In this document: one piece after another, positions 1,181 to 22,222 of the stretch
How the letters are laid out: each line of letters opens with the position of its first letter
How positions within the stretch are numbered: the stretch's first letter is position 1
Assembly (NCBI GenBank): GCA_965214095.1
Contig: OZ243938.1
Span: 3,200,001 to 3,264,000, forward strand
Direction: 5' to 3'
Origin: Candidatus Poribacteria bacterium
GTDB lineage: Bacteria > Poribacteria > WGA-4E > WGA-3G
Length of the DNA: 64,000 bases
The notes under the pieces: generated by a model
What the model was told of the DNA's origin: nothing
What the model saw: only the letters and a program-made list of their open reading frames with translations
The model's database searches: none
Program-made: the position numbers and the translations under genes

Positions 1181-3124
1181 CTAAGGCCAAAAGTTATACA
1201 TCGGTTGCTGTGTCACCACACTAATCAAACTCCAAATCCCACCCACAGTAAAATCCCCCAACATCAAACCCACAGCAAACATCACCAATTGCCGAGAGGC
1301 ACTGGGTCCACCGATTTTCAACACAGACCACTTCACAATCGAACTGACCAACATACAACTCCACAAATACCGCATACCCCAATCGCTTGAAACGACAAAG
1401 CCAATCGGATGAAAGGGCCACCAGAAAAACCGCGCACGCATGAACATCAACCCCGTCGAAAAAAGTAGACCGAAAACTATCCCACCCGTTGCATAGAAAT
1501 TCGGTTCAGTAGGATAGTATAACCATCGTTGGAGTCCACTGAAGATGCGTTCTCCGAATCCTATATTCCAACTACTACTCCCACTCATATTCAATGCACC
1601 ATTGGTATAATAGATATACAGAATTGTCCCAAAGACCATAATAGAAGCAAACGCGGAAACCCCAAGAAGTGCTAAGAACAACCGCTGCGGTGCAATTTTA
1701 GATCGTTCCGAGAGTTTAAATCCTTCTAACTGATGTGGCATCGGGTTACTCGTATAACTCCGATTGAACCAACGATATAATGACATAGCAACAAGGTTGT
1801 TTGTTCCCAACATGCGTGTGCCGAAGCTATCAATCAGGATATGGTGATTCGGCATGTTTTCCATCGCATGCACAGGAAACCCTTGTTCAGCACGCATCCG
1901 AGTTAACACCAAAACAATGATAAAATAGATAGCAAAAAACAAGGGTATCAACCACAACGACATGCCAATACGGTTAGAAAAGATAAAGAGTATTGCAAGT
2001 CCACCAACAATACCCCACAACGCAAATCTATATGAAATAGGTTCTGTAGAATCTTCACCTGTACGATGCCGTGCGATGTGGAATACACCTCGAAAATGAC
2101 GCAAGTTCAACACTAACACGGAGATGAATATCCCAATGGCAGCACCAAAACATTGCCTGTCAATATACGGAAATCCGGGCACACTGGAGAGTCCAACTGC
2201 ACTTGAGAACACCAATTGCGCTTTATAAAAAAAGAAGAAAAACCAACTTGAAAATGACAAATCAAGTGGCATTAACAGTCCCAATCCAATGACGAATGGA
2301 TAATAAGACATACTGATACCACCGATAGCATTCCAAGGTTTCTCAGTGAATAGATGTCCAAACCCACGCCATCCACCGACCCGCTTTATCGGCAAGTATG
2401 GAATTGTAGGATACAGAAAACTGAACCCGTTGAGGATTGCAATAGACGCTGCTAATCCGAAACCGATCCACATGATACGGTGTGAAAACAGAGATTTCGT
2501 GTTATGCGTAACCTGAAAAGCAATTTGTGTTATCGGATAAGCGAGTCGTTCTCGTTCCACCCATTGCTTTCGTAGGATAACGTTGATACACAACATCACC
2601 AGCACAAGTGCAGTGACGAAAAGAGTCCAAGAAAGTATTGGAACGAACCATACACCAATTATTTCAAATGTTGTGAGATTGGTTTCACCTTTATAGTATC
2701 CTGTAAGTGCCTTTGAATCGTCTACAAGCAGCCATCTCGGTAGGTAATCCCAAAAGAGTTGTTTCCATTCGTTTTCGGGAGTGGCGAACCAGAAGGCATG
2801 ACCGACGGTCGTGACGAGGATTGTCATCAAAGTTATGGAAGGAAAAGCACATGCAGTGCTGAGTAGAATGTAGATGGTGAGAAGTTCAGCATCGGAAAGT
2901 AGACGGATACGGGTGGTATGACGAACAATCAGGTTGAATAGTGTGAATAATAAAACGACAAAAACGACATTGTAAAACGGGACAGCGTAAGTATTCAGGG
3001 CATAACCGACGAGTCCTACTTCACCAGCGATAATCCAGTAGAAATTGAACGGAATCAACACAAGTGTTATGAGAATAGACTTCCATGTGACCCCGTACGA
3101 TTTCAACTGTCCATCTTCTTTCAT
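1181..3124 (-). CDS. Polytopic membrane protein, DUF6785/DUF6784-like putative transporter
   Basis: 647 aa, many TM segments; motifs 'RKQWVERERLAYP', 'RMRAEQG', 'WWPFHPIG', 'GLMLGD'. Confidence 0.7.
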   Translation of the reverse strand: MKEDGQLKSYGVTWKSILITLVLIPFNFYWIIAGEVGLVGYALNTYAVPFYNVVFVVLLFTLFNLIVRHTTRIRLLSDAELLTIYILLSTACAFPSITLMTILVTTVGHAFWFATPENEWKQLFWDYLPRWLLVDDSKALTGYYKGETNLTTFEIIGVWFVPILSWTLFVTALVLVMLCINVILRKQWVERERLAYPITQIAFQVTHNTKSLFSHRIMWIGFGLAASIAILNGFSFLYPTIPYLPIKRVGGWRGFGHLFTEKPWNAIGGISMSYYPFVIGLGLLMPLDLSFSSWFFFFFYKAQLVFSSAVGLSSVPGFPYIDRQCFGAAIGIFISVLVLNLRHFRGVFHIARHRTGEDSTEPISYRFALWGIVGGLAILFIFSNRIGMSLWLIPLFFAIYFIIVLVLTRMRAEQGFPVHAMENMPNHHILIDSFGTRMLGTNNLVAMSLYRWFNRSYTSNPMPHQLEGFKLSERSKIAPQRLFLALLGVSAFASIMVFGTILYIYYTNGALNMSGSSSWNIGFGERIFSGLQRWLYYPTEPNFYATGGIVFGLLFSTGLMFMRARFFWWPFHPIGFVVSSDWGMRYLWSCMLVSSIVKWSVLKIGGPSASRQLVMFAVGLMLGDFTVGGIWSLISVVTQQPMYNFWP

Positions 3125-3287
3125 GTCGCCTTATGTCTCTCACGCAAAAAAGTGGTGAATGCATCCAGTTCCTTAGATACATTGTCAAATAGTTTACTAA
3201 CTTGTTTTGCATGTTATTCTGAGTTAGCGTAAATTAATTTATATCCTGTGTTCAATGTTTATTCACTAAAATATGCATGTAATATTC

Positions 3288-5177: not shown

Positions 5178-6008
5178 CTATTTCGACTGTGGCACAAGAA
5201 TATCATCTCTCCAACGAAGACGGAAAGAAGGACGCACAAGTGCCTCTGGTGACTGTAGTGTCAACCCGCCATCTGCAGTCAACACAATTCCGGTCACAAA
5301 ATCCGCTTCATCAGATGCTAAGAACAGTGCCACATTTGCAATATCTTCCGGTTTTCCGTATCTACCAATCGGGTAACAATCGCGGCACGCTTGATCTTCG
5401 AGAGCATCCGCAGCGAGAGATGCTTCACCCCGTTCCCCAACAATCTGACCGGGAGCAATAGCATTTGCGCGAATGCCTTCGCTACCGTAGTCAAGTGCGA
5501 TACTTCGTGTTAACGCGTTTAATCCACCTTTTCCCGCACCATAAAGTCCAAAACCAGGATTTGTGATCGTCGCATTGACTGTTGAGATAAAGACAAGGTG
5601 TCCCCCGCCGTTTTTAATCATTTCTGGGATACAATACTTCGCACCAAGCCACGGTCCACCGAGTGTAACCCCAAGACTTTCATTCCATTCTTCTGGGGTG
5701 AATTCAATCGCTTTTTTCGTATAAGAATGTGCAGCATTATGAACAAGTGTAGTTATTTTACCGTAGTTTGTTAATGCTGTTTCCACGAGTGTTTCCCATG
5801 TTTTTTCATCTGCAACATCACCCATCACAGCGACTGCTTCACCGCCTGCATCTTTAATACGATTTACGGTTTCGGTCAGTTTCTCTTCTCTGCGGCGTGT
5901 GTTAACAACTACTTTCGCGCCTTCACTTGCAAATTTGTATGCTGTTGCCGCACCGATACCACCCCATGCTGCACCCGCAACTATCGCAACTTTTCCTTCC
6001 AATCTCAT
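5178..6008 (-). CDS. SDR family oxidoreductase
   Basis: 'AGAAWGGIG' Rossmann motif, YxxxK (YGAGK), 'IRANAIAPG', 'DGG'. Confidence 0.9.
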   Translation of the reverse strand: MRLEGKVAIVAGAAWGGIGAATAYKFASEGAKVVVNTRRREEKLTETVNRIKDAGGEAVAVMGDVADEKTWETLVETALTNYGKITTLVHNAAHSYTKKAIEFTPEEWNESLGVTLGGPWLGAKYCIPEMIKNGGGHLVFISTVNATITNPGFGLYGAGKGGLNALTRSIALDYGSEGIRANAIAPGQIVGERGEASLAADALEDQACRDCYPIGRYGKPEDIANVALFLASDEADFVTGIVLTADGGLTLQSPEALVRPSFRLRWRDDILVPQSK

Positions 6009-6238
6009 AAAAAATCCTTTCTGTGAAAAATAATAAGTACAACAACTGACAACTTATACCATTTCTAATAGAAAACGCCGCATTTTTGTAGCATAAACTG
6101 CCAGTTTGTGCAGTCCTTCAAGACATTCTTAACAAATGGTAATGGGATAAACATTTATAGAAATGGTATTACTATGAATTCAGAAAAACTTGTTAGTGTT
6201 TGACTATCAACACTAATATATTTTTGATCCATGAAACG

Positions 6239-7537
6239 TTATAACTTAATCAGATTCAATGGATTATACATAGATTGCTCAATATCAATTTCTTCTTTTT
6301 CTATCAATTCAATCAATTGCATGGATTTTTCCAAATCTAACATCGCTTCCTTAATCCTGCCGAGATCAGCATTGGCAAGTGCTCTATGTGAGTAAGCCAT
6401 TATATGATTTGGTTCTAACTGTATAACTTTGTCATAGTCTGGAATCGACTCCTTAATCAATCCAAGCTGGTATTTTCCATGACCTCGGTTGAAATATGCA
6501 AAAGAATTATCAGGTTGTAATCGTATTGCTTCCTCAAAATCTTCCATTCCCTCTTCATGGAATTCCAGCTCCATCTTTGCTAACCCTCTCATATTGTAGG
6601 CATCAACATTATCTGGTTGCAGACTAATGGCTATATCAAGATAATCCACTGCATCCTGGTATTCTGACAATTGATACTTTACAAACCCAAGCGTTAGATA
6701 TGCCTCAATGTTATCAGGATCTTGCTTTAATGAGTTCTCGGCAACTTCTATAACATTTTCGTATTCCTCAATCTCTTCCTCGGACAATTCTTCAGATAAA
6801 TCTGGCAATATAGGTAAAACGAGTTCTGAATGCTCCGACGACATCTCATCTCTTATAGCATTAGGTAAAATAATTGTTCCTTCCAATTCAAACGGGTCTT
6901 CTTCTTCTTGATTTAACATCGCTATACATACTTGACGGAATTCACGTGCTTGCTTATTTGTAGGGTCTAACGACAATGCTTTATCGTAGTCGGCGATTGC
7001 CTCTTCATATTCCTCATATTCTTCTTTTAAGCCTCCTCTTAAATAGTATGCATCAGCACATTCAGGCTCTAAACTTATTGCCTTGTTATATTCTGCCAGT
7101 GCTCCGTCATAATCATCATAATCCTCGAAACACCAAGCACGGGTCAAATAGGCTTTAACACATTTTGGATTAAACTGCAATGCCGTGTTACAATCTATCA
7201 TACCATCTTCCACATCCCCAAGTAGGAGATTTGATTCAGCTCGTTTTATATATGCATCGATGTGTTCAGGATTTAATTCAATGACTTTATCAAAATCTTC
7301 TAAAGCATCTAATGCTTCACCTAAAGCCATCTTTGATATGCCGCGAGAATAATATGCCTCAAGATAATCGGGTTTCAGCTGAATGGCACTGGTGAAATCT
7401 TTGATTGCACCACGGTCATTATCACGTTTTGATTTGGCCATTCCTTGTTCGTAATAGTACTCGGGATTTTTGCTTTTAGTAGACGTTTTTTGGATGTTGC
7501 CACTTCTTTTCCGCCTATTCGCTGGTTTTTTCGCCAT
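6239..7537 (-). CDS. Tetratricopeptide-repeat protein
   Basis: Two blocks of TPR units (AYxxRG...AxxDYxKAIxLxP) separated by an acidic linker. Confidence 0.9.
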   Translation of the reverse strand: MAKKPANRRKRSGNIQKTSTKSKNPEYYYEQGMAKSKRDNDRGAIKDFTSAIQLKPDYLEAYYSRGISKMALGEALDALEDFDKVIELNPEHIDAYIKRAESNLLLGDVEDGMIDCNTALQFNPKCVKAYLTRAWCFEDYDDYDGALAEYNKAISLEPECADAYYLRGGLKEEYEEYEEAIADYDKALSLDPTNKQAREFRQVCIAMLNQEEEDPFELEGTIILPNAIRDEMSSEHSELVLPILPDLSEELSEEEIEEYENVIEVAENSLKQDPDNIEAYLTLGFVKYQLSEYQDAVDYLDIAISLQPDNVDAYNMRGLAKMELEFHEEGMEDFEEAIRLQPDNSFAYFNRGHGKYQLGLIKESIPDYDKVIQLEPNHIMAYSHRALANADLGRIKEAMLDLEKSMQLIELIEKEEIDIEQSMYNPLNLIKL

Positions 7538-7718
7538 AATGCATGTTTCCTTAATTTTGTTATATACATGAATGTATCAGGATGTTATTTCCTTAACTAT
7601 AATACCACATTTTTCGTTTTAATGCTATAATGTTGAAACTCAATTGAAGAGTTGAGTAACAGTATCTAAATATCTATATTTTTCTTGATATTTTTATGGA
7701 TTTATGGTATACTATTAT

Positions 7719-8306
7719 ATGGCTTATGTATCAGCACGTAAAGCAAGTGAACTGCTGGATTATACCCCCGACCATTTAAGGAAGTTGGCAAATGAAGGAA
7801 AGATTGAATATATCCGCACAGGAGGCGGACACAGACGCTATGATGTTGAAGGATACATCAAAAGCAAATCCCAATCAATTGCAACTGTTTGCTACTGCAG
7901 AGTATCCAGCACGAAGCAAAGAGATGATCTTGAACGACAAGTTGAATATATGCGAAGCATCTACCCCTCAGCAGAAGTTATCAGAGACATCGGGAGTGGT
8001 ATCAACTTCAAAAGGAAAGGGCTTAGAACCTTATTGGAACGGCTTATGCAAGGTGATAAGCTCCAAGTTGTTATTGCCCATCGGGATAGGCTCGCCCGAT
8101 TCGGTATCGACCTTATACAATACCTCATTGAACAAAACGGTGGCGAACTCGTGGTTCTCGATCAAACAGAACACAGTCCGCAAGAAGAACTCACGGCGGA
8201 TCTTCTCGCAATCCTGCACGTCTTCAGTAGCCGGATGCGCGGGCTCCGAAGTTACCGTGACAAAATCAAAGAAGATAAGAGTTTATCCGACAACAGAACA
8301 ACGTGA
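7719..8306 (+). CDS. tnpA: IS607 serine recombinase/transposase
   Basis: N-terminal MerR-like HTH 'RTGGGHRRY', catalytic 'YCRVSS', 'DIGSGINFKRKGL', 'HRDRLARFG'. ATG 7719 lies 5 nt after TTGATA-N17-TATACT. Confidence 0.92.
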   Translation: MAYVSARKASELLDYTPDHLRKLANEGKIEYIRTGGGHRRYDVEGYIKSKSQSIATVCYCRVSSTKQRDDLERQVEYMRSIYPSAEVIRDIGSGINFKRKGLRTLLERLMQGDKLQVVIAHRDRLARFGIDLIQYLIEQNGGELVVLDQTEHSPQEELTADLLAILHVFSSRMRGLRSYRDKIKEDKSLSDNRTT

Positions 8307-9375
8307 AACACTTCGGCAGTGGTTTGGCACAGCACGTTTCACTTATAATAAAACCGTTGCTTTGTTGGAGGAAACAGACACTAAAGCGAATTGGAAAGCG
8401 ATAAAAACAGGCATTCTTCACGATCTACCTGATTGGAGCAAAGAAACGCCGTATCAGATAAAGTCTATTGCTATCCGAGATGCTTGTATTGCTGTTAGAG
8501 CAGCAAAGCAAAAATGTCAAAAAACAGGTAAGTATCAATCTGTATCTTTCAAATCTAAACGGCATCCCTCAGATAGTATTTTCATGCCAAAATCTGCTAT
8601 AAAACCACGCGGTGTCTATCACACCTTACTTGGTGATCTAAAGATGTCAGAAATGTTGCCTGATAATATCTCTGACTCCCGACTTGTGAAAAAGAATGAC
8701 AAATACTATTTATGTGTATCTTATACTGTGACAACTCCGAAGCGAAAGCCAAACGGAAGTGTTGTTGCTTTAGACCCTGGCGTGAGAACATTCCTCACAT
8801 ATTTTCATGAGCGTGGTTTCGGATGGCTTGGACACCATGCTATTAATCGGATTCAAAGACTTTGTTCATATCTCGATGACCTATTATCTCGTGCAGCTAA
8901 AGCAAATAGACAATCACGCAAGAATATGAGACGTGCTGCAAATAGAATACGCACACGCATAAAAAATCTTGTAGATGAATTGCATCATAAAGTCGCGCGA
9001 TACCTTGTGGATACCTTTGATATTATCTTACTCCCTACATTTGAAACTTCAGATATGGTAATGCGTGGAAAACGCAAACTACGAAAGAGGTCTGCCCGAC
9101 AAATGTTGACGCTCTCTCACTACAGATTCAAACAGTTCCTAAAACATAAAGCGAAAGAAACTGGATCTATCATCGTTGATGTCTGTGAAGCATACACATC
9201 AAAAACAGTTTCTTGGAATGGCGAGATGAGAAAATCACTCGGTGGACGCAAGATAATCAAAGATAGCACAGGACGCAAGATGAACAGAGACTTGAATGGC
9301 GCACGTGGGATATTCCTGCGTGCTTTGGTAGATGAACCCTGGTTACTCTCTATGAGTAACTTGCAAACCGTATAA
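7792..9375 (+). CDS. tnpB: IS607 TnpB RNA-guided nuclease, pro-Fanzor-like (alternative start GTG 8257)
   Basis: 'KKIRVYPT...WFG..RFTYN', RuvC-I 'ALDPG', 'ILLPTFET', 'VCEAYTSKT', RuvC-III 'NRDLNGARGI'. Confidence 0.88.
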   Translation: MKERLNISAQEADTDAMMLKDTSKANPNQLQLFATAEYPARSKEMILNDKLNICEASTPQQKLSETSGVVSTSKGKGLEPYWNGLCKVISSKLLLPIGIGSPDSVSTLYNTSLNKTVANSWFSIKQNTVRKKNSRRIFSQSCTSSVAGCAGSEVTVTKSKKIRVYPTTEQRETLRQWFGTARFTYNKTVALLEETDTKANWKAIKTGILHDLPDWSKETPYQIKSIAIRDACIAVRAAKQKCQKTGKYQSVSFKSKRHPSDSIFMPKSAIKPRGVYHTLLGDLKMSEMLPDNISDSRLVKKNDKYYLCVSYTVTTPKRKPNGSVVALDPGVRTFLTYFHERGFGWLGHHAINRIQRLCSYLDDLLSRAAKANRQSRKNMRRAANRIRTRIKNLVDELHHKVARYLVDTFDIILLPTFETSDMVMRGKRKLRKRSARQMLTLSHYRFKQFLKHKAKETGSIIVDVCEAYTSKTVSWNGEMRKSLGGRKIIKDSTGRKMNRDLNGARGIFLRALVDEPWLLSMSNLQTV

Positions 9376-9806: not shown

Positions 9807-10598
9807 ATGTTTAACGTAGAACCAACACTCAATGATGACCAAGTCATGCAGTTTATACATAACGGATATATCACATTGGAAAACATCATTGATGAAGATT
9901 TTAATAAGGAATGTGATGCTATTCAGGGCGGGGGACTCGGTGGATTTGTCCAAACAGATGAATTTCGCAGAAACGTCCTGCTCCATCCAGAAGTTGCAGG
10001 AGTTGTGCGTTCGCTGTTAGGTGAGAACTTTCTTGTGCCAACAAATGCACACCATCACCTCTTTGAAGCACCACACCGTGGACAGACATGGCATTCAGAC
10101 GGTCTCACTGAATATGGATACGGTATTACGCACCTTCAATGCTATTATTATCCGAAAGAGGTAAATATTGAAGATGGTCCCACGATGATCTTGCCGGGTT
10201 CACATTTTCGTCTTGTAGATAGAGAAGCGATTGCACACTATGGAGATATACTCGGACAACTCTCACTTACTGTTCCCGCAGGCACCGTCGCTATGACACG
10301 ATACGGAATTTGGCACAAGGCAGGTCCAAAACTCAACGCAGACAGACGCGGGATGATTAAGTTTTCCTATTTCCGATCAGCAATGCCTAAACGGGATTGG
10401 AAACGTGAGTCCGATGAAATTCCCCATTATCGACATAAAGGGAGGCATCCGTATGTAACTGAGGTGGAATCATATAGAGATGGACAACGAGGTCAATATA
10501 CGTGGAATTGGTTATGCGGGTTGACAGAAGTGGAGGAGGAACTCCCACCCAAGAAAATGTTCAATAGAGGCATCCCGTTATCAGAAATCAGTCTATAG
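9807..10598 (+). CDS. PhyH-family Fe(II)/2-oxoglutarate dioxygenase
   Basis: 'QTWHSDG' (HxD), 'GPTMILPGSH', distal 'IWH'; SD GAGG. Confidence 0.85.
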   Translation: MFNVEPTLNDDQVMQFIHNGYITLENIIDEDFNKECDAIQGGGLGGFVQTDEFRRNVLLHPEVAGVVRSLLGENFLVPTNAHHHLFEAPHRGQTWHSDGLTEYGYGITHLQCYYYPKEVNIEDGPTMILPGSHFRLVDREAIAHYGDILGQLSLTVPAGTVAMTRYGIWHKAGPKLNADRRGMIKFSYFRSAMPKRDWKRESDEIPHYRHKGRHPYVTEVESYRDGQRGQYTWNWLCGLTEVEEELPPKKMFNRGIPLSEISL

Positions 10599-19770: not shown

Positions 19771-19873
19771 CAGTTAATATGCTATTCAGGACTGGTACAG
19801 GAAGTTCCTGCAGACTTGAGAGCGGTCAGTTTCCTTATATAGTAAATTATTGAAATAATCAGACATTTCATCT

Positions 19874-19937
19874 ATAGAAGCGATCTCCGAATCGCGATGG
19901 ACCTTAGGTACAATCGTGAATCGGAGTTCACTCCTAC
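19874..19937. repeat. REP pair, family 2, between convergent genes
   Basis: ATAGAAGCGATCTCCGAATCGCGAT ... ATCGTGAATCGGAGTTCACTCCTAC. Confidence 0.65.
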
Positions 19938-20000
19938 ATATCAAATCTGTCCAAGTAATTCTAAAATCTACTATACTGGTCCTTTCTCTTGTTGACTTTA

Positions 20001-21635
20001 TCATGAAATATCAGCATCTCTGGCAAAATCGCTTAGCACAGAAGGTGTCGCCGTATCAAAACCAATAAAATCTAACATACCAGCATCATTCGGGTCAGCA
20101 ATAGAGAATTTATTTGCTACCATCGCAACAACAGCACATTTCGCGGGTCTTCCCATTTCTTGCCGATACATATCCAACGCGGTTTTCGGATGAATGTCAC
20201 CAAACCACGTTTGGTTGTCTGTATAGATAATGAATGTATCCACCTCAAGTTTATTTTCTAATGCATATAGCATTGGTAATGCGCAATCCGTTGCCCCCAT
20301 CGGTATGCCTGAAACTGCCTCAACAGCACTTGTCAACTTATCTGATGCTGATATTGGCAGCGGAACAAAATCATCAGAAAAACCAAAGATGTGGTAATGC
20401 GGTTCTGTCCGAGCAGTCACCAATGCCATCGCAGCAGAAGCATTACGCGGGGTTAGTCCCTTACATCCAGCAACTGTTCCAAACCCCATTGAACCAGAAA
20501 CATCAAGTGCCAAAAGTGTATTCTTCTCACTCGGTTCAACGTTATCAAATGCCATGTAAAAAGCAGCGTCCAAGGCATCAACAATCTGCGGAACAGGTTC
20601 CCACGTCAAACTCCCTCTGACTCCCGCACCAGACCTGTATGTAATTAATGCCATTAGAATCTGGATAGGATGTACGAGCGAACGTTTGATTGCATCCGAT
20701 GTAAGTCTTTCCAACACTGTTTCTACCGATGGTGCAAAAGGTTTAAGCAATCCCACTTGTGTCATCTTACCGAGATTTCGCACAGTTGCCATCACAGGCA
20801 TGTTGGCTAACAAAGCAGCCCAGACATCAATCTCATCCTTCCATTCATTCGGGACCATCTCGTGTGTTAATTGATGCTTTTCAATCAGTCTGATTATATC
20901 TACGCGTTTCTGCGTCCGTTTCAGTTCCTCATACCCAGTAAGCAATTCTGGCAAAGCATCCGTTGCATCGTAAGTTGTAGATATCTGCGTGCCATCATCT
21001 CTTGTCCGATGCACAGTCCGATCATCAGTATCAAGTCCTTTAATCCAACGATAGATACCTCGGTTTTCACCGTAGTGGCATTTTGCGAGAACATCGGCAT
21101 GCCGCCAACTGTTCCGAAACTGATACTTTAATACCTGATATGCCAATGCATCATCATTTTTCGTCCGATACCATTCACCAACTAACCGTCGTAATGCCCG
21201 ACCCCATCCACGCATGCCGTCTACAAAAGCAACGAAATTGAATAGGTGTGTTCCGATACGCGCAACATCACAGAATACCTCTTGCACCTTGCGCTTTGTG
21301 TCAGCGTTTCCGTGGGTAAAAGCAAGTGCCAATGCATATAATGCAGGATCGTTTTTCGGGGCGCGACCGGTAACAGAAATCTCCCGAATCCGTTCTACAA
21401 CCTGGACACCGTCTTCTGCAATACATTTCTTAACAGAATCGACATTTTCCTTAGTCAAATCCTGTTCCTTCGCGTAATAAGATCCACCTTCAGTTCCCAA
21501 AATGAGAAATCTATCAAGATTTGTCCAAATAGAAACAGGATAAACGTACCCACCAGCAGAATTCTCAACCTGCTTTTCGTCTAAAGGTTGTCGTTGATGT
21601 GGATGTAGAGGTGAATATTTATTTAGATAACTCAT
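20001..21635 (-). CDS. rsr: Ro60/Rsr TROVE + vWA domain RNA-binding protein (544 aa)
   Basis: 'NSAGGYV', 'RFLILGTEGGSYY', 'GWGRALRR', 'KYQFRNSWRHAD', MIDAS 'DVSGSM', 'TDCALPM', 'GFD'. Start is ATG 21635; the track extension runs through a Y RNA. Confidence 0.95.
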   Translation of the reverse strand: MSYLNKYSPLHPHQRQPLDEKQVENSAGGYVYPVSIWTNLDRFLILGTEGGSYYAKEQDLTKENVDSVKKCIAEDGVQVVERIREISVTGRAPKNDPALYALALAFTHGNADTKRKVQEVFCDVARIGTHLFNFVAFVDGMRGWGRALRRLVGEWYRTKNDDALAYQVLKYQFRNSWRHADVLAKCHYGENRGIYRWIKGLDTDDRTVHRTRDDGTQISTTYDATDALPELLTGYEELKRTQKRVDIIRLIEKHQLTHEMVPNEWKDEIDVWAALLANMPVMATVRNLGKMTQVGLLKPFAPSVETVLERLTSDAIKRSLVHPIQILMALITYRSGAGVRGSLTWEPVPQIVDALDAAFYMAFDNVEPSEKNTLLALDVSGSMGFGTVAGCKGLTPRNASAAMALVTARTEPHYHIFGFSDDFVPLPISASDKLTSAVEAVSGIPMGATDCALPMLYALENKLEVDTFIIYTDNQTWFGDIHPKTALDMYRQEMGRPAKCAVVAMVANKFSIADPNDAGMLDFIGFDTATPSVLSDFARDADIS

Positions 21636-21650
21636 GATTTTTATGATATG

Positions 21651-21705
21651 GCGGGCAAGGAGTGTATTGCGGTAGTTTTCAAGATAACGCAATACTTCGG
21701 CCCGC
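21651..21705 (-). ncRNA. Minimal Y RNA (55 nt)
   Basis: 5'-GCGGGCCGAAGUAUUGCGUUAUC...CGCAAUACACUCCUUGCCCGC-3': paired ends, bulged Ro-binding helix (GGCCGA/CUUGCC), second helix GUAUUGCG/CGCAAUAC; adjacent to rsr. Confidence 0.8.
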
Positions 21706-21714
21706 ACAAAGAAT

Positions 21715-21852
21715 GCTCCGGATAAGGATCAGAGTCCGTTTGATATGCTCTACCATCTGAGCTATAGTTAGCCTATGCGTAACACAAACTTACTAACAGG
21801 ACTCGAACCTGTGACCACATCATTACAATAACAAACTCACTCGACCCGGAGC
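21715..21852 (-). ncRNA. yrlA: YrlA-type Y RNA with permuted tRNA-like domain
   Basis: Ends GCUCCGGGUCGAG...CUUAUCCGGAGC pair. T-arm ACAGG-UUCGAGU-CCUGU comes first, then a closed acceptor-like stem, then D-arm UAGCUCAGAUGGUAGAGC. Confidence 0.88.
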
Positions 21853-21882
21853 CGCGTAAGATTATATCTATTTTCACAAAGC

Positions 21883-21961
21883 AGCGGACAAGGTGTGTAT
21901 TACTATAGGCGCATTTTACTGCGACGCTAACGTATAGGGTAAAGTAATACTTCAGTCCGCT
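21883..21961 (-). ncRNA. Short Y RNA (79 nt)
   Basis: 5'-AGCGGACUGAAGUAUUACU...AGUAAUACACACCUUGUCCGCU-3'; same scaffold as 21651-21705 with compensatory changes. Confidence 0.8.
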
Positions 21962-21968
21962 AAAGACA

Positions 21969-22092
21969 ACTCTGGATAAAAATCAGAATACTATGCTCTA
22001 CCGCTGAGCTACAGTAAGTTTCACATTACATTCCACCTACCGGCAGGAGTCGAACCTGCGACATAGGATAACGCATCCACTCGACCCAGAGC
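21969..22092 (-). ncRNA. yrlA: Second YrlA-type Y RNA
   Basis: Ends GCUCUGGGUCGAG...UUUAUCCAGAGU; T-arm GCAGG-UUCGACU-CCUGC; stem CGGUAGGU/ACUUACUG; D-arm UAGCUCAGCGGUAGAGC. Confidence 0.88.
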
Positions 22093-22161
22093 AAGATGTT
22101 TACGACTACAGATATCTGCTGAAACGACTCAAGCAAGATATCTATTTCGTGTGTGGAAGAT

Positions 22162-22191
22162 ATTATATCATCTTCCTTGCATATATTGCAA
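22162..22191 (-). promoter_or_regulatory. Sigma70-type promoter for the Y RNA-rsr operon
   Basis: Minus strand TTGCAA-N18-TATAAT with extended TG; palindrome GGAAGAT-N8-ATCTTCC (22155-22176) overlaps the -10. Confidence 0.6.
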
Positions 22192-22222
22192 ATTGAAATT
22201 AATGTGCAACCAAAACCCATAC

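Follow-up and report, generated by a model that had tools for sequence, protein, structure and literature searches.

Organization of the rsr locus

The region analyzed is a stretch of 64,000 nucleotides (nt) of DNA from a Candidatus Poribacteria bacterium of the sponge-symbiont type (contig OZ243938.1, positions 3,200,001 to 3,264,000), hereafter referred to as the window. It carries rsr, an intact gene for an orthologue of Ro60, and upstream of this gene on the same strand four RNA elements with the features of bacterial Y RNAs, herein designated RNA1 to RNA4 (Table 1). The rsr product contains the Pfam domains TROVE (2.3e-33) and vWA_Ro60 (1e-63), and its matches among the PDB sequences include Rsr of D. 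radiodurans (2nvo, 1.5e-124), human RO60 (9nen, 1e-123), and Xenopus Ro60 (1yvp, 6.2e-123). Its closest homologues are 72-95% identical, and those with names all belong to Candidatus Poribacteria. In a preliminary description of this DNA, made from the sequence alone, the four RNAs were placed on the rsr strand with coordinates, order, and lengths that turned out to be correct to within one base; the length of RNA2 becomes 79 nt if one further A-U pair is counted. The 3' end of RNA4 is located 15 nt from the initiation codon of rsr, and the ends of RNA3 and RNA1 are located 80 nt and 334 nt upstream of it, respectively. According to Chen et al. 2014 (PMC4201824), a YrlA RNA is expected to share the strand of a Ro60 orthologue and to lie no more than about 4 kilobases (kb) away from it, and both RNA1 and RNA3 lie within this distance on this strand.

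Table 1. Predicted RNA elements, the rsr gene, and candidate transcription signals in the window
Feature	Position	Strand	Description and basis
RNA1, YrlA-like, type a	22091-21970	minus	122 nt; Rfam YrlA, homologue alignment
RNA2, short Y-like hairpin, type b	21960-21884	minus	77 nt; homologue alignment
RNA3, YrlA-like, type c	21851-21716	minus	136 nt; Rfam YrlA, homologue alignment
RNA4, short Y-like hairpin, type d	21705-21651	minus	55 nt; homologue alignment, folding
rsr, Ro60 orthologue	20001-21635	minus	544 amino acids (aa) from ATG at 21635; Pfam
Sigma-70-like promoter candidate	22162-22191	minus	TTGCAA, 18-nt spacer, TATAAT, TG before -10; 10 of 12 matches
TATAAT-like element	21861-21866	minus	10 nt upstream of RNA3; read from the sequence

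RNA1 is closed by a helix of 8 base pairs (bp) with a bulged C followed by a G.U pair, and contains a T-arm (22059-22043), a closed acceptor-like stem-loop of 7-8 bp (22042-22012), and a D-arm (22009-21995). RNA3 is built on the same plan, with its T-arm at 21812-21796, its acceptor-like stem-loop at 21795-21765, and its D-arm at 21762-21747; it has a longer inner stem and, 5' of the T-arm, a small additional hairpin. This arrangement, pointed out beforehand as a permuted tRNA mimic, matches the YrlA layout in the published accounts, where it is described as a circularly permuted tRNA (bioRxiv 10.1101/312249). RNA4 is composed of a closing helix of 6 bp, a bulged C, G.U and A-U pairs, a second helix of 7-8 bp, and a loop of about 16 nt, and thereby fits the description of the hairpin-type YrlB and Yrn2 as far as these are described in the published sources. 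RNA2 follows the plan of RNA4 plus an inner hairpin (closing helix of 6 bp, bulged U, G.U, A-U, second helix of 7 bp, and inner hairpin). Between the two YrlA-like paralogues, the differences concern the extra hairpin 5' of the T-arm, how long the inner stem is, and the acceptor loop. The short RNAs are distinguished from each other by their loops, and the inner hairpin of type b is almost invariant in sequence among the type-b copies.

A GTG codon at 21707 lengthens the rsr open reading frame (ORF) by 24 codons over RNA4 (window 21635-21707). The candidate that RNA4 represents the coding N-terminus of Rsr, within a 568-aa ORF starting at this GTG, was rejected because the distance between GTG and ATG is a multiple of three in only two of the 10 related loci checked. 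Several Rsr homologues in the database are recorded with 560-594 aa as against the usual 539-548, and in some records gene callers have apparently taken the last Y RNA as part of an rsr ORF that is too long.

Conservation of helices among related loci

By scanning genome_contigs, a total of 28 rsr loci were identified, each as a stretch of 17 kb (numbered with the prefix L); 23 of them are close to the window (78-95% Rsr identity; 21 titled Candidatus Poribacteria and two "uncultured bacterium") and five are distant (Anaerolineae, Nitrosotalea, Planctomycetota, Bifidobacteriaceae, and Bryobacterales). Pattern matching within 900 nt upstream of rsr in the 23 close loci and the window gave 36 short and 35 YrlA-like elements. 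All 36 short sequences were aligned independently of structure (alignment A1), and 34 of the 35 YrlA-like sequences were aligned, the element of L014 being left out on account of its double module. Covariance models were then made for the short RNAs (R1) and the YrlA-like RNAs (R2), with the window copies included in the training sets.

For the 36 short RNAs, 99.2% of the 510 cells in 15 pairs of the proposed structure are paired, and changes on both sides are found in four of the 15 pairs. None of 500 shuffles reached the observed values of percent paired, changed pairs, changed cells, or covariation score, and upon sliding the partner by one to three columns, the pairing fell to 30-54%. RNAalifold recovered the two main helices, 13 of the 15 pairs, unaided; the alternative pairing that is preferred in energy uses columns that vary without compensation. 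Compensatory substitutions between the two short RNAs of the window, as claimed in the preliminary description, are present in A1 at columns 5/75 and 16/60, which are G-C in RNA4 and A-U in RNA2.

For the YrlA-like RNAs, RNAalifold gave a closing helix of eight pairs, an inner stem of seven, a T-arm of five with a 7-nt loop, a loop-closed acceptor-like stem of seven, and a D-arm of four. In this structure, 98.1% of 1021 cells are paired over the 34 sequences, and compensatory changes are found in 12 of the 31 pairs, including six of the seven acceptor-stem pairs; again none of 500 shuffles reached the observed values, and the slid controls stayed at 33-49%. The T-stem (100% paired) and the D-stem (99.2%) carry almost invariant loops and are always in the order T then D. 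The acceptor-like stem located between the two arms is 97.8% paired over its seven pairs and variable in sequence. The features by which YrlA is recognized, namely near-invariant T- and D-arms in the order T-D with a closed and variable acceptor-like stem-loop between them, are thus all found in this alignment. YrlA is further characterized by binding to Rsr and by modification through tRNA enzymes such as TruB and DusA.

The putative Ro60-binding helix

In metazoan Y RNAs, the Ro60-binding site is described as the closing helix between the 5' and 3' ends of the RNA, which includes a bulged C and has conserved bases in each of its strands. In all four RNAs of the window, the closing helix contains a one-base bulge (C in three and U in RNA2), followed by G.U and then A-U. 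Over the alignments, the bulged base is C in 34 of the 36 short RNAs, the G.U following the bulge is invariant, 33 of the 34 distinct short RNAs have A-U as the next pair, and conservation is also seen in the 3' strand; a closing helix of the metazoan type, with the bulged C and with both strands conserved, is therefore present. As judged from sequence, this shared bulged helix appears to match the published Ro60-binding motif.

A motif GNCGAAN0-1G has been described in YrlA and YrlB (Chen et al. 2014, PMC4201824). RNA4 carries an exact form of it, GCCGAAG, the core of which is invariant or nearly so over the 36 short homologues. At the same site, RNA1 and RNA3 carry GUCGAGUG, which agrees with GNCGA and has G in place of the motif's A, and their YrlA-like relatives carry GUCGUG, GUCGAU, or GUCGAA. 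Xenopus Ro60 contacts GGUCCGA (Chen et al. 2014, PMC4201824), from which GGGCCGA of RNA4 is different by one base. The likeness to the vertebrate Y RNA stem suggested for RNA4 in the preliminary description thus covers the motif and the bulged helix, and does not extend to the exact contact sequence (GGGCCGA for GGUCCGA) or to the vertebrate family; membership in the metazoan Y RNA family was rejected, since three scans with Rfam Y_RNA (RF00019) gave no match at an expectation value (E) of up to 10.

Library scans and single-sequence folding

No match was obtained in the whole 64-kb window with Rfam at gathering thresholds. When the cutoff level was relaxed to E of 1, only two matches were found among 4227 families over the whole window, both to YrlA (RF02553) on the minus strand at 21820-21741 (E 0.016) and 22083-21970 (E 0.018). 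RNA1 scored 30.1 bits over the full model (positions 1-114) and RNA3 scored 30.2 bits over model positions 23-87, and these alignments span the T-arm, the acceptor-like stem, and the D-arm. By the test of the gathering score, the RNAs of the window are not members of the curated YrlA family. The curated model seems too narrow for these lineages, because eight related and distant loci gave no match at gathering although they are linked by R2 (see below). No weight was given to a low-scoring match (20.6 bits, E 0.25) with "nematode sRNA ceN72-3_ceN74-2," an Rfam family made up of Y RNA homologues, since this match was absent on a narrower scan. ARAGORN predicted no tRNA in the window, and thus the elements are not ordinary tRNA genes.

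The z-scores of single-sequence folding for RNA1 to RNA4 were -1.5, -2.3, -4.6, and -4.5 on the minus strand and -2.2, -1.9, -3.0, and -4.5 on the plus strand. In the folds of minimum free energy, the acceptor-like stem is absent, so that the full tRNA-like layout is not reproduced. Since the opposite strand folds about equally well and the layout is missed, single-sequence folding settles little, and it was set aside as proof of strand or shape; the decisive support is the comparative evidence.

Specificity, selection, and linkage to rsr

The models R1 and R2 were used for scanning the window and the 28 loci, 508,708 nt in total. R1 detected the 36 training copies at 55-79 bits, the degenerate copy of L014 at 27.5 bits, and seven antisense echoes at 17-20 bits, with no other match in the window and none in the five distant loci. 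The training sequences RNA2 and RNA4 scored 62.3 and 72.8 bits, the latter as against 20.2 bits for its antisense. R2, by which the training sequences RNA1 and RNA3 scored 128.2 and 109.4 bits, detected its 34 training copies and a part of the L014 element. Outside of any circularity, it also detected four additional elements, which adjoin rsr on the rsr strand and come from three of the five distant loci: Anaerolineae L023 (57.7 and 38.5 bits), Bifidobacteriaceae L026 (48.5 bits), and Nitrosotalea L024 (44.1 bits). Neither model found copies away from rsr in the window or the 17-kb loci.

In L023, the YrlA-like elements flank rsr on both sides (L023:7813-7943 and 9839-9965). L024, a contig titled as the archaeon Nitrosotalea, contains an rsr homologue of 50% identity at 6229-7788, with the YrlA-like element upstream at 5994-6115 and a tRNA gene just downstream at 7820-7892.

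The strength of conservation was estimated by comparing the window with five of the six other loci having the same order a-b-c-d; L001 was left out because of an insertion. The RNAs are 82-100% identical to those of the window (RNA1, 83-93%; RNA2, 86-94%; RNA3, 88-97%; RNA4, 82-100%), as compared with 58-86% for third codon positions of rsr and 91-97% for codon positions 1 and 2. When genomes are compared, the similar region opens at the first RNA or slightly upstream of it (window 22091-22206) and closes at the rsr stop codon near 20000, and the flanking genes are in common only with L004 and L009. Thus, the RNAs and rsr travel as one block.

In a single case, L014, joint decay of rsr and the short RNA was observed: rsr (L014:8001-9628) has ATA in the start position and a frameshift, leaving an ORF of 236 aa, and the short RNA is without its 3' strand. 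In a separate locus, L010, which is a complete-chromosome assembly, rsr is frameshifted after about 101 codons (L010:8001-9622) with the four RNAs intact, which is either a sequencing error or a recent pseudogene.

No domain of RtcB, RtcA, or RtcR (the sigma-54 activator) was found among the 35 ORFs of the window (all non-overlapping ORFs of at least 120 aa), in line with the earlier observation that no rtc gene lies in this window, and none was found when 92 ORFs of at least 330 aa, lying no farther than 8 kb from rsr, were examined in the 23 related loci. Altogether, the RNA elements exist with conserved helices and compensatory changes, they are found only beside rsr and on its strand, and they move with it as a block.

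Duplication and variation of the cassette

Within the window, the four RNAs are arranged as two collinear cassettes, each consisting of a YrlA-like RNA, a spacer of 9-10 nt, and a short RNA. The two cassettes are identical in 132 of 186 columns (71%), whereas the identity in 30 shuffles was 49% on average and 55.7% at maximum. The second cassette is therefore a diverged copy of the first, as the preliminary description had put it.

Among the total of 24 loci, including the window, 11 carry four intact RNAs and 10 carry two. Seven of the 11 four-RNA loci have the order of the window, three have the YrlA types swapped, and one has the short types arranged otherwise. The other loci are one with three RNAs plus an interrupted first YrlA (L015), one with three RNAs, and the aberrant L014. 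On the Rsr tree, loci of the four-RNA form are distributed over several branches, eight loci that make up a well-supported clade have two RNAs, and L009 with two RNAs is the sister of L004 with four. This distribution fits best with an early gain within the group, after which losses, or rearrangements between the repeats, occurred repeatedly; the deep branches of the Rsr tree are unresolved.

Several structural variants were found along this series. In L015, the first YrlA-like RNA is split, as if by insertion, with its ends (7196-7223 and about 7647) approximately 420 nt apart, and the other three RNAs are intact. L005 (7786-7907) and L012 (7791-7912) contain a third YrlA variant, in which the closing helix of type a and the extra hairpin of type c are combined with a much shorter acceptor-like stem-loop; this mixture of types suggests exchange between paralogues. 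In L014 (7718-7913), a YrlA-like RNA of 196 nt contains two tandem tRNA-like modules within one closing helix. The Rfam tRNA model, which has a gathering score of 29, assigns 45.7 bits to the junction between them, where the D-arm of the first module is followed by the T-arm of the second; this double module is a natural demonstration of the permuted-tRNA nature of the module.

A palindromic repeat of about 100 nt is inserted inside or beside the block of Y RNAs and rsr at several loci (window 19838-19938; L001:2456-2556; L010:7891-7986 and 3045-3138; and L013, between the short RNA and rsr), leaving the RNAs unbroken. In appearance, the repeat resembles a mobile element of miniature size or one of the REP type. 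Downstream of rsr, a 72-aa ORF (19786-20004) was considered as a conserved partner and rejected: it has no Pfam match, its sole match is the repeat inside L001, and since it overlaps the palindromic repeat it is probably not a gene.

Predicted transcription and mode of action

The sigma-70-like promoter candidate is located about 70 nt upstream of RNA1; three such sites are found in 1 kb as compared with 2.3 expected in shuffles, and -10-like elements are present upstream of the first RNA in relatives. For the TATAAT-like element preceding RNA3, the sole -35-like hexamer, TTGTCC (21891-21886), is located 19 nt away inside the 3' strand of RNA2; since the promoter scan covered spacers of 16-18 nt, this site was outside its range and went unreported. 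A/T-rich -10-like elements are also found before the second YrlA in L002-L004 and L008. The element may start the second cassette as an internal promoter. The array and rsr are predicted to form a single transcript, since no terminator-like site was found between 21400 and 22400 and the gap from RNA4 to the ATG is too short to hold a promoter. In M. smegmatis, YrlA and YrlB upstream of rsr are contained in a single precursor (Chen et al. 2014, PMC4201824).

The function of the array may be considered by analogy with Salmonella, M. smegmatis, and D. radiodurans. The array and rsr would be transcribed together from one or more upstream promoters, and the precursor would be cut into separate RNAs, each of which could be bound by Rsr through the bulged helix. 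In the YrlA-type RNAs, this putative binding helix would bear a circularly permuted tRNA-like module, and the short RNAs would be binding helices with little else. The tRNA-like or loop end would recruit a partner such as PNPase, so that one Rsr protein could give several kinds of Rsr particle. Because the differences between the paralogues are located where partner binding is placed in the literature, the four RNAs are read as different adaptors, and it would follow that one Ro60 is provided with several adaptors.

Comparison with known Ro60-Y RNA systems

YrlA-like RNAs beside Ro60 have been described for 254 bacterial species and 22 phages; many species have two YrlA matches next to a single Ro gene (Table S1), and each of the three species under study has a second Y RNA of the hairpin type (Chen et al. 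2014, PMC4201824). Since two YrlA matches per locus and a second hairpin Y RNA are already on record, the four-RNA array of the window is an enlarged instance of a known system: a doubled version of the bacterial Ro60-Y RNA system and no new kind of system.

A close layout is that of M. smegmatis, in which, as described, YrlA is followed by a shorter second RNA and then by rsr, all on one strand, and YrlA has the order T-arm, acceptor-like stem, and D-arm with an acceptor-like stem of 7 bp, as in the window (PMC4201824). The array of M. smegmatis, however, is described with two RNAs instead of four, its YrlB has a possible T-arm that is absent from the short RNAs of the window, and its binding helix is recognizable on the 5' strand only (PMC4201824), whereas both strands are clear here.

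In Salmonella Typhimurium (rsr-yrlBA-rtcBA operon), one tRNA-like and one hairpin Y RNA with a motif of the GNCGAA type are reported, both being bound by Rsr, and YrlA is described as a close tRNA mimic without a free CCA end (bioRxiv 10.1101/312249). The Salmonella RNAs are located 3' of rsr and adjoin rtcB and rtcA, but those of the window are located 5' of rsr, rtc genes were found neither in the window nor among the 92 flanking ORFs of the 23 related loci, and the Rfam YrlA model gives them 30 of the required 69 bits. As reported, a search with YrlB found relatives only within Salmonella (Chen et al. 2014, PMC4201824).

D. radiodurans, according to the published accounts, also has several RNAs upstream of rsr in a polycistronic precursor, both strands of the metazoan-like helix, and a long hairpin in Yrn2. 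In contrast, the T/D-like arms of Yrn1 are in an order unlike that of YrlA (PMC4201824), which the RNAs of the window follow, and the precursor of D. radiodurans contains a true tRNA gene, for which ARAGORN found no counterpart here. With respect to the binding helix, both strands are kept in D. radiodurans and the 5' strand alone can be recognized in Salmonella and M. smegmatis, as stated in the same source (PMC4201824).

The vertebrate Y RNAs are similar to those of the window in having two to four paralogues per Ro60, a closing helix with a bulged C, and differing loop ends, but are described without a tRNA-like module, and the RNAs of the window have no match to Rfam Y_RNA. Vertebrate Y RNAs are separate polymerase III genes.

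The name "Poribacteria" was not found in the supplementary files of Chen et al. 2014 (PMC4201824), of which four of the five were searched, and a literature search joining Poribacteria to Ro60 or TROVE found nothing; as judged from titles and abstracts, the matches to "trove" were the everyday word. Relative to what these sources describe, new aspects are the phylum, the interleaved doubled cassette, the clear two-stranded binding helix, and the failure of the curated model.

Alternative explanations

From the sequence evidence given above, it is considered quite probable that the four RNA elements are Y RNA genes, two of the YrlA type and two short YrlB/Yrn2-like hairpins, that form one unit with rsr. 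A number of observations weigh against this interpretation. The scores of about 30 bits with the Rfam YrlA model are far under the gathering score of 69 (RF02553), no YrlA match was obtained at gathering in the eight related and distant loci, and the scores of the window copies with R1 and R2 are circular because these copies are training members. With regard to the motif, RNA2 has ACUGAAG, which is off at two positions including U for the bulged C, and the YrlA-like RNAs have GUCGAG instead of the published GNCGAA. Thermodynamic folding gives no discrimination between the strands. Covariation is partly due to few events (type a versus c, and b versus d), its counts being of sequences and not of events; the shuffles were not exceeded in the measure of "further pair types" (short RNAs, 257 of 500; YrlA-like RNAs, 91 of 500); and the G.U and A-U pairs beside the bulge show no variation, so that covariation neither supports nor contradicts them. 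In addition, since 10 of the 24 loci have two RNAs, the second cassette is dispensable in some lineages.

This last point leads to the possibility that only one cassette or some of the RNAs are functional and that the duplicate is drifting to loss. RNA2 could be a poor binder of Rsr, for it has U at the bulge, where 34 of the 36 short RNAs have C, and A-U for G-C beside it; the sister relationship of L009 with two RNAs to L004 with four points to recent loss, and the first YrlA is interrupted in L015. Nevertheless, RNA2 and RNA3 are as conserved as RNA1 and RNA4, compensatory changes keep the helices in both copies, the inner hairpin of type b is conserved almost base for base, and four-RNA loci are located on several separate branches of the Rsr tree, so that partial function is regarded as rather unlikely. 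An origin as functionless remnants of tRNA genes, or as copies of a mobile repeat lying beside rsr by chance, would account for the tRNA-like T- and D-arms, and is in keeping with the proposed origin of Y RNAs from tRNAs (Chen et al. 2014, PMC4201824) and with the true palindromic repeat family around these loci. It is disfavoured to the point of being hardly credible, however, by the lack of any ARAGORN tRNA in the window, the permuted order of the arms and their closure by a helix of the Ro type, the absence of copies elsewhere in the window or the 17-kb loci, the covariation of the helices, and the conservation of the RNAs far above that of synonymous sites.

A different explanation is that the array acts chiefly in cis as a 5' leader, in which Rsr would bind RNA4 next to its own start codon and control the translation or stability of its mRNA, with free Y RNAs being a by-product or absent. 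The distance of 15 nt between RNA4 and the ATG in the window is within the range of 15-26 nt found for the last short RNA in 17 of the 23 loci with an intact last hairpin (window included, L014 excluded), and neither a terminator-like site nor an obvious promoter is located between the array and rsr. In six loci (including L010, L013, L018, L020, and L027), however, the gap is 62-215 nt, in part due to inserted repeats, with the RNAs intact; the compensatory conservation of the tRNA-like modules is left unexplained by a leader; and the same layout in M. smegmatis gives separate Rsr-bound RNAs, as reported (PMC4201824). An array acting chiefly as a leader is held to be unlikely, but leader binding is compatible with Y RNA genes and both could hold together. 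As a speculative extension, for which we see only a slim chance, the locus might constitute a self-balancing Rsr module, in which Rsr bound to its own nascent leader would protect and release the Y RNAs and at the same time, by way of the hairpin located 15 nt from the start codon, determine the level of rsr translation. RNase P would then open the acceptor-like stems of 7-8 bp and CCA would be added, giving tRNA-like halves of the YrlA RNAs with different partners. If this were true, up to four distinct Rsr particles could be formed in a host-associated bacterium.

Neighboring genes and other features of the window

No conserved neighbors that could serve as clues to a partner were found around the related loci. 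Three of the 23 loci (L002:3741-6191, L007:2892-5291, and L010:3755-6148) have, at 2-4 kb upstream of the array, a DEAD-box helicase with a DSHCT domain encoded on the opposite strand, and an RluA-type pseudouridine synthase is located near the array in L018 and L027; this neighborhood is too irregular for a link. Elsewhere in the window, about 11 large ORFs (776-1099 aa) at 28977-63331 are a large tandem paralogue family, in 10 of which an ECF-type sigma-70 N-terminus is joined to beta-propeller repeats (WD40 or BNR/sortilin-like). An ORF at 7792-9375 has the IS605 OrfB, Cas12f-like TNB, and helix-turn-helix domains of a TnpB-type transposon protein, and a similar ORF is found in L003 (3988-5097).

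Biological implications

The findings extend the bacterial Ro60-Y RNA systems to the uncultivated phylum Candidatus Poribacteria. Neither these RNAs nor their counterparts in three other lineages tested are recognized by the Rfam YrlA model, and they are consequently passed over in automatic annotation. The binding helix is clearer on both strands than in Salmonella or M. smegmatis, and would ease tests of binding and structure. Finally, the related loci make up a natural series in which the contribution of each Y RNA could be examined, since they differ in the number of RNAs (two, three, or four) and in their order, and one of them has a YrlA with a double module.

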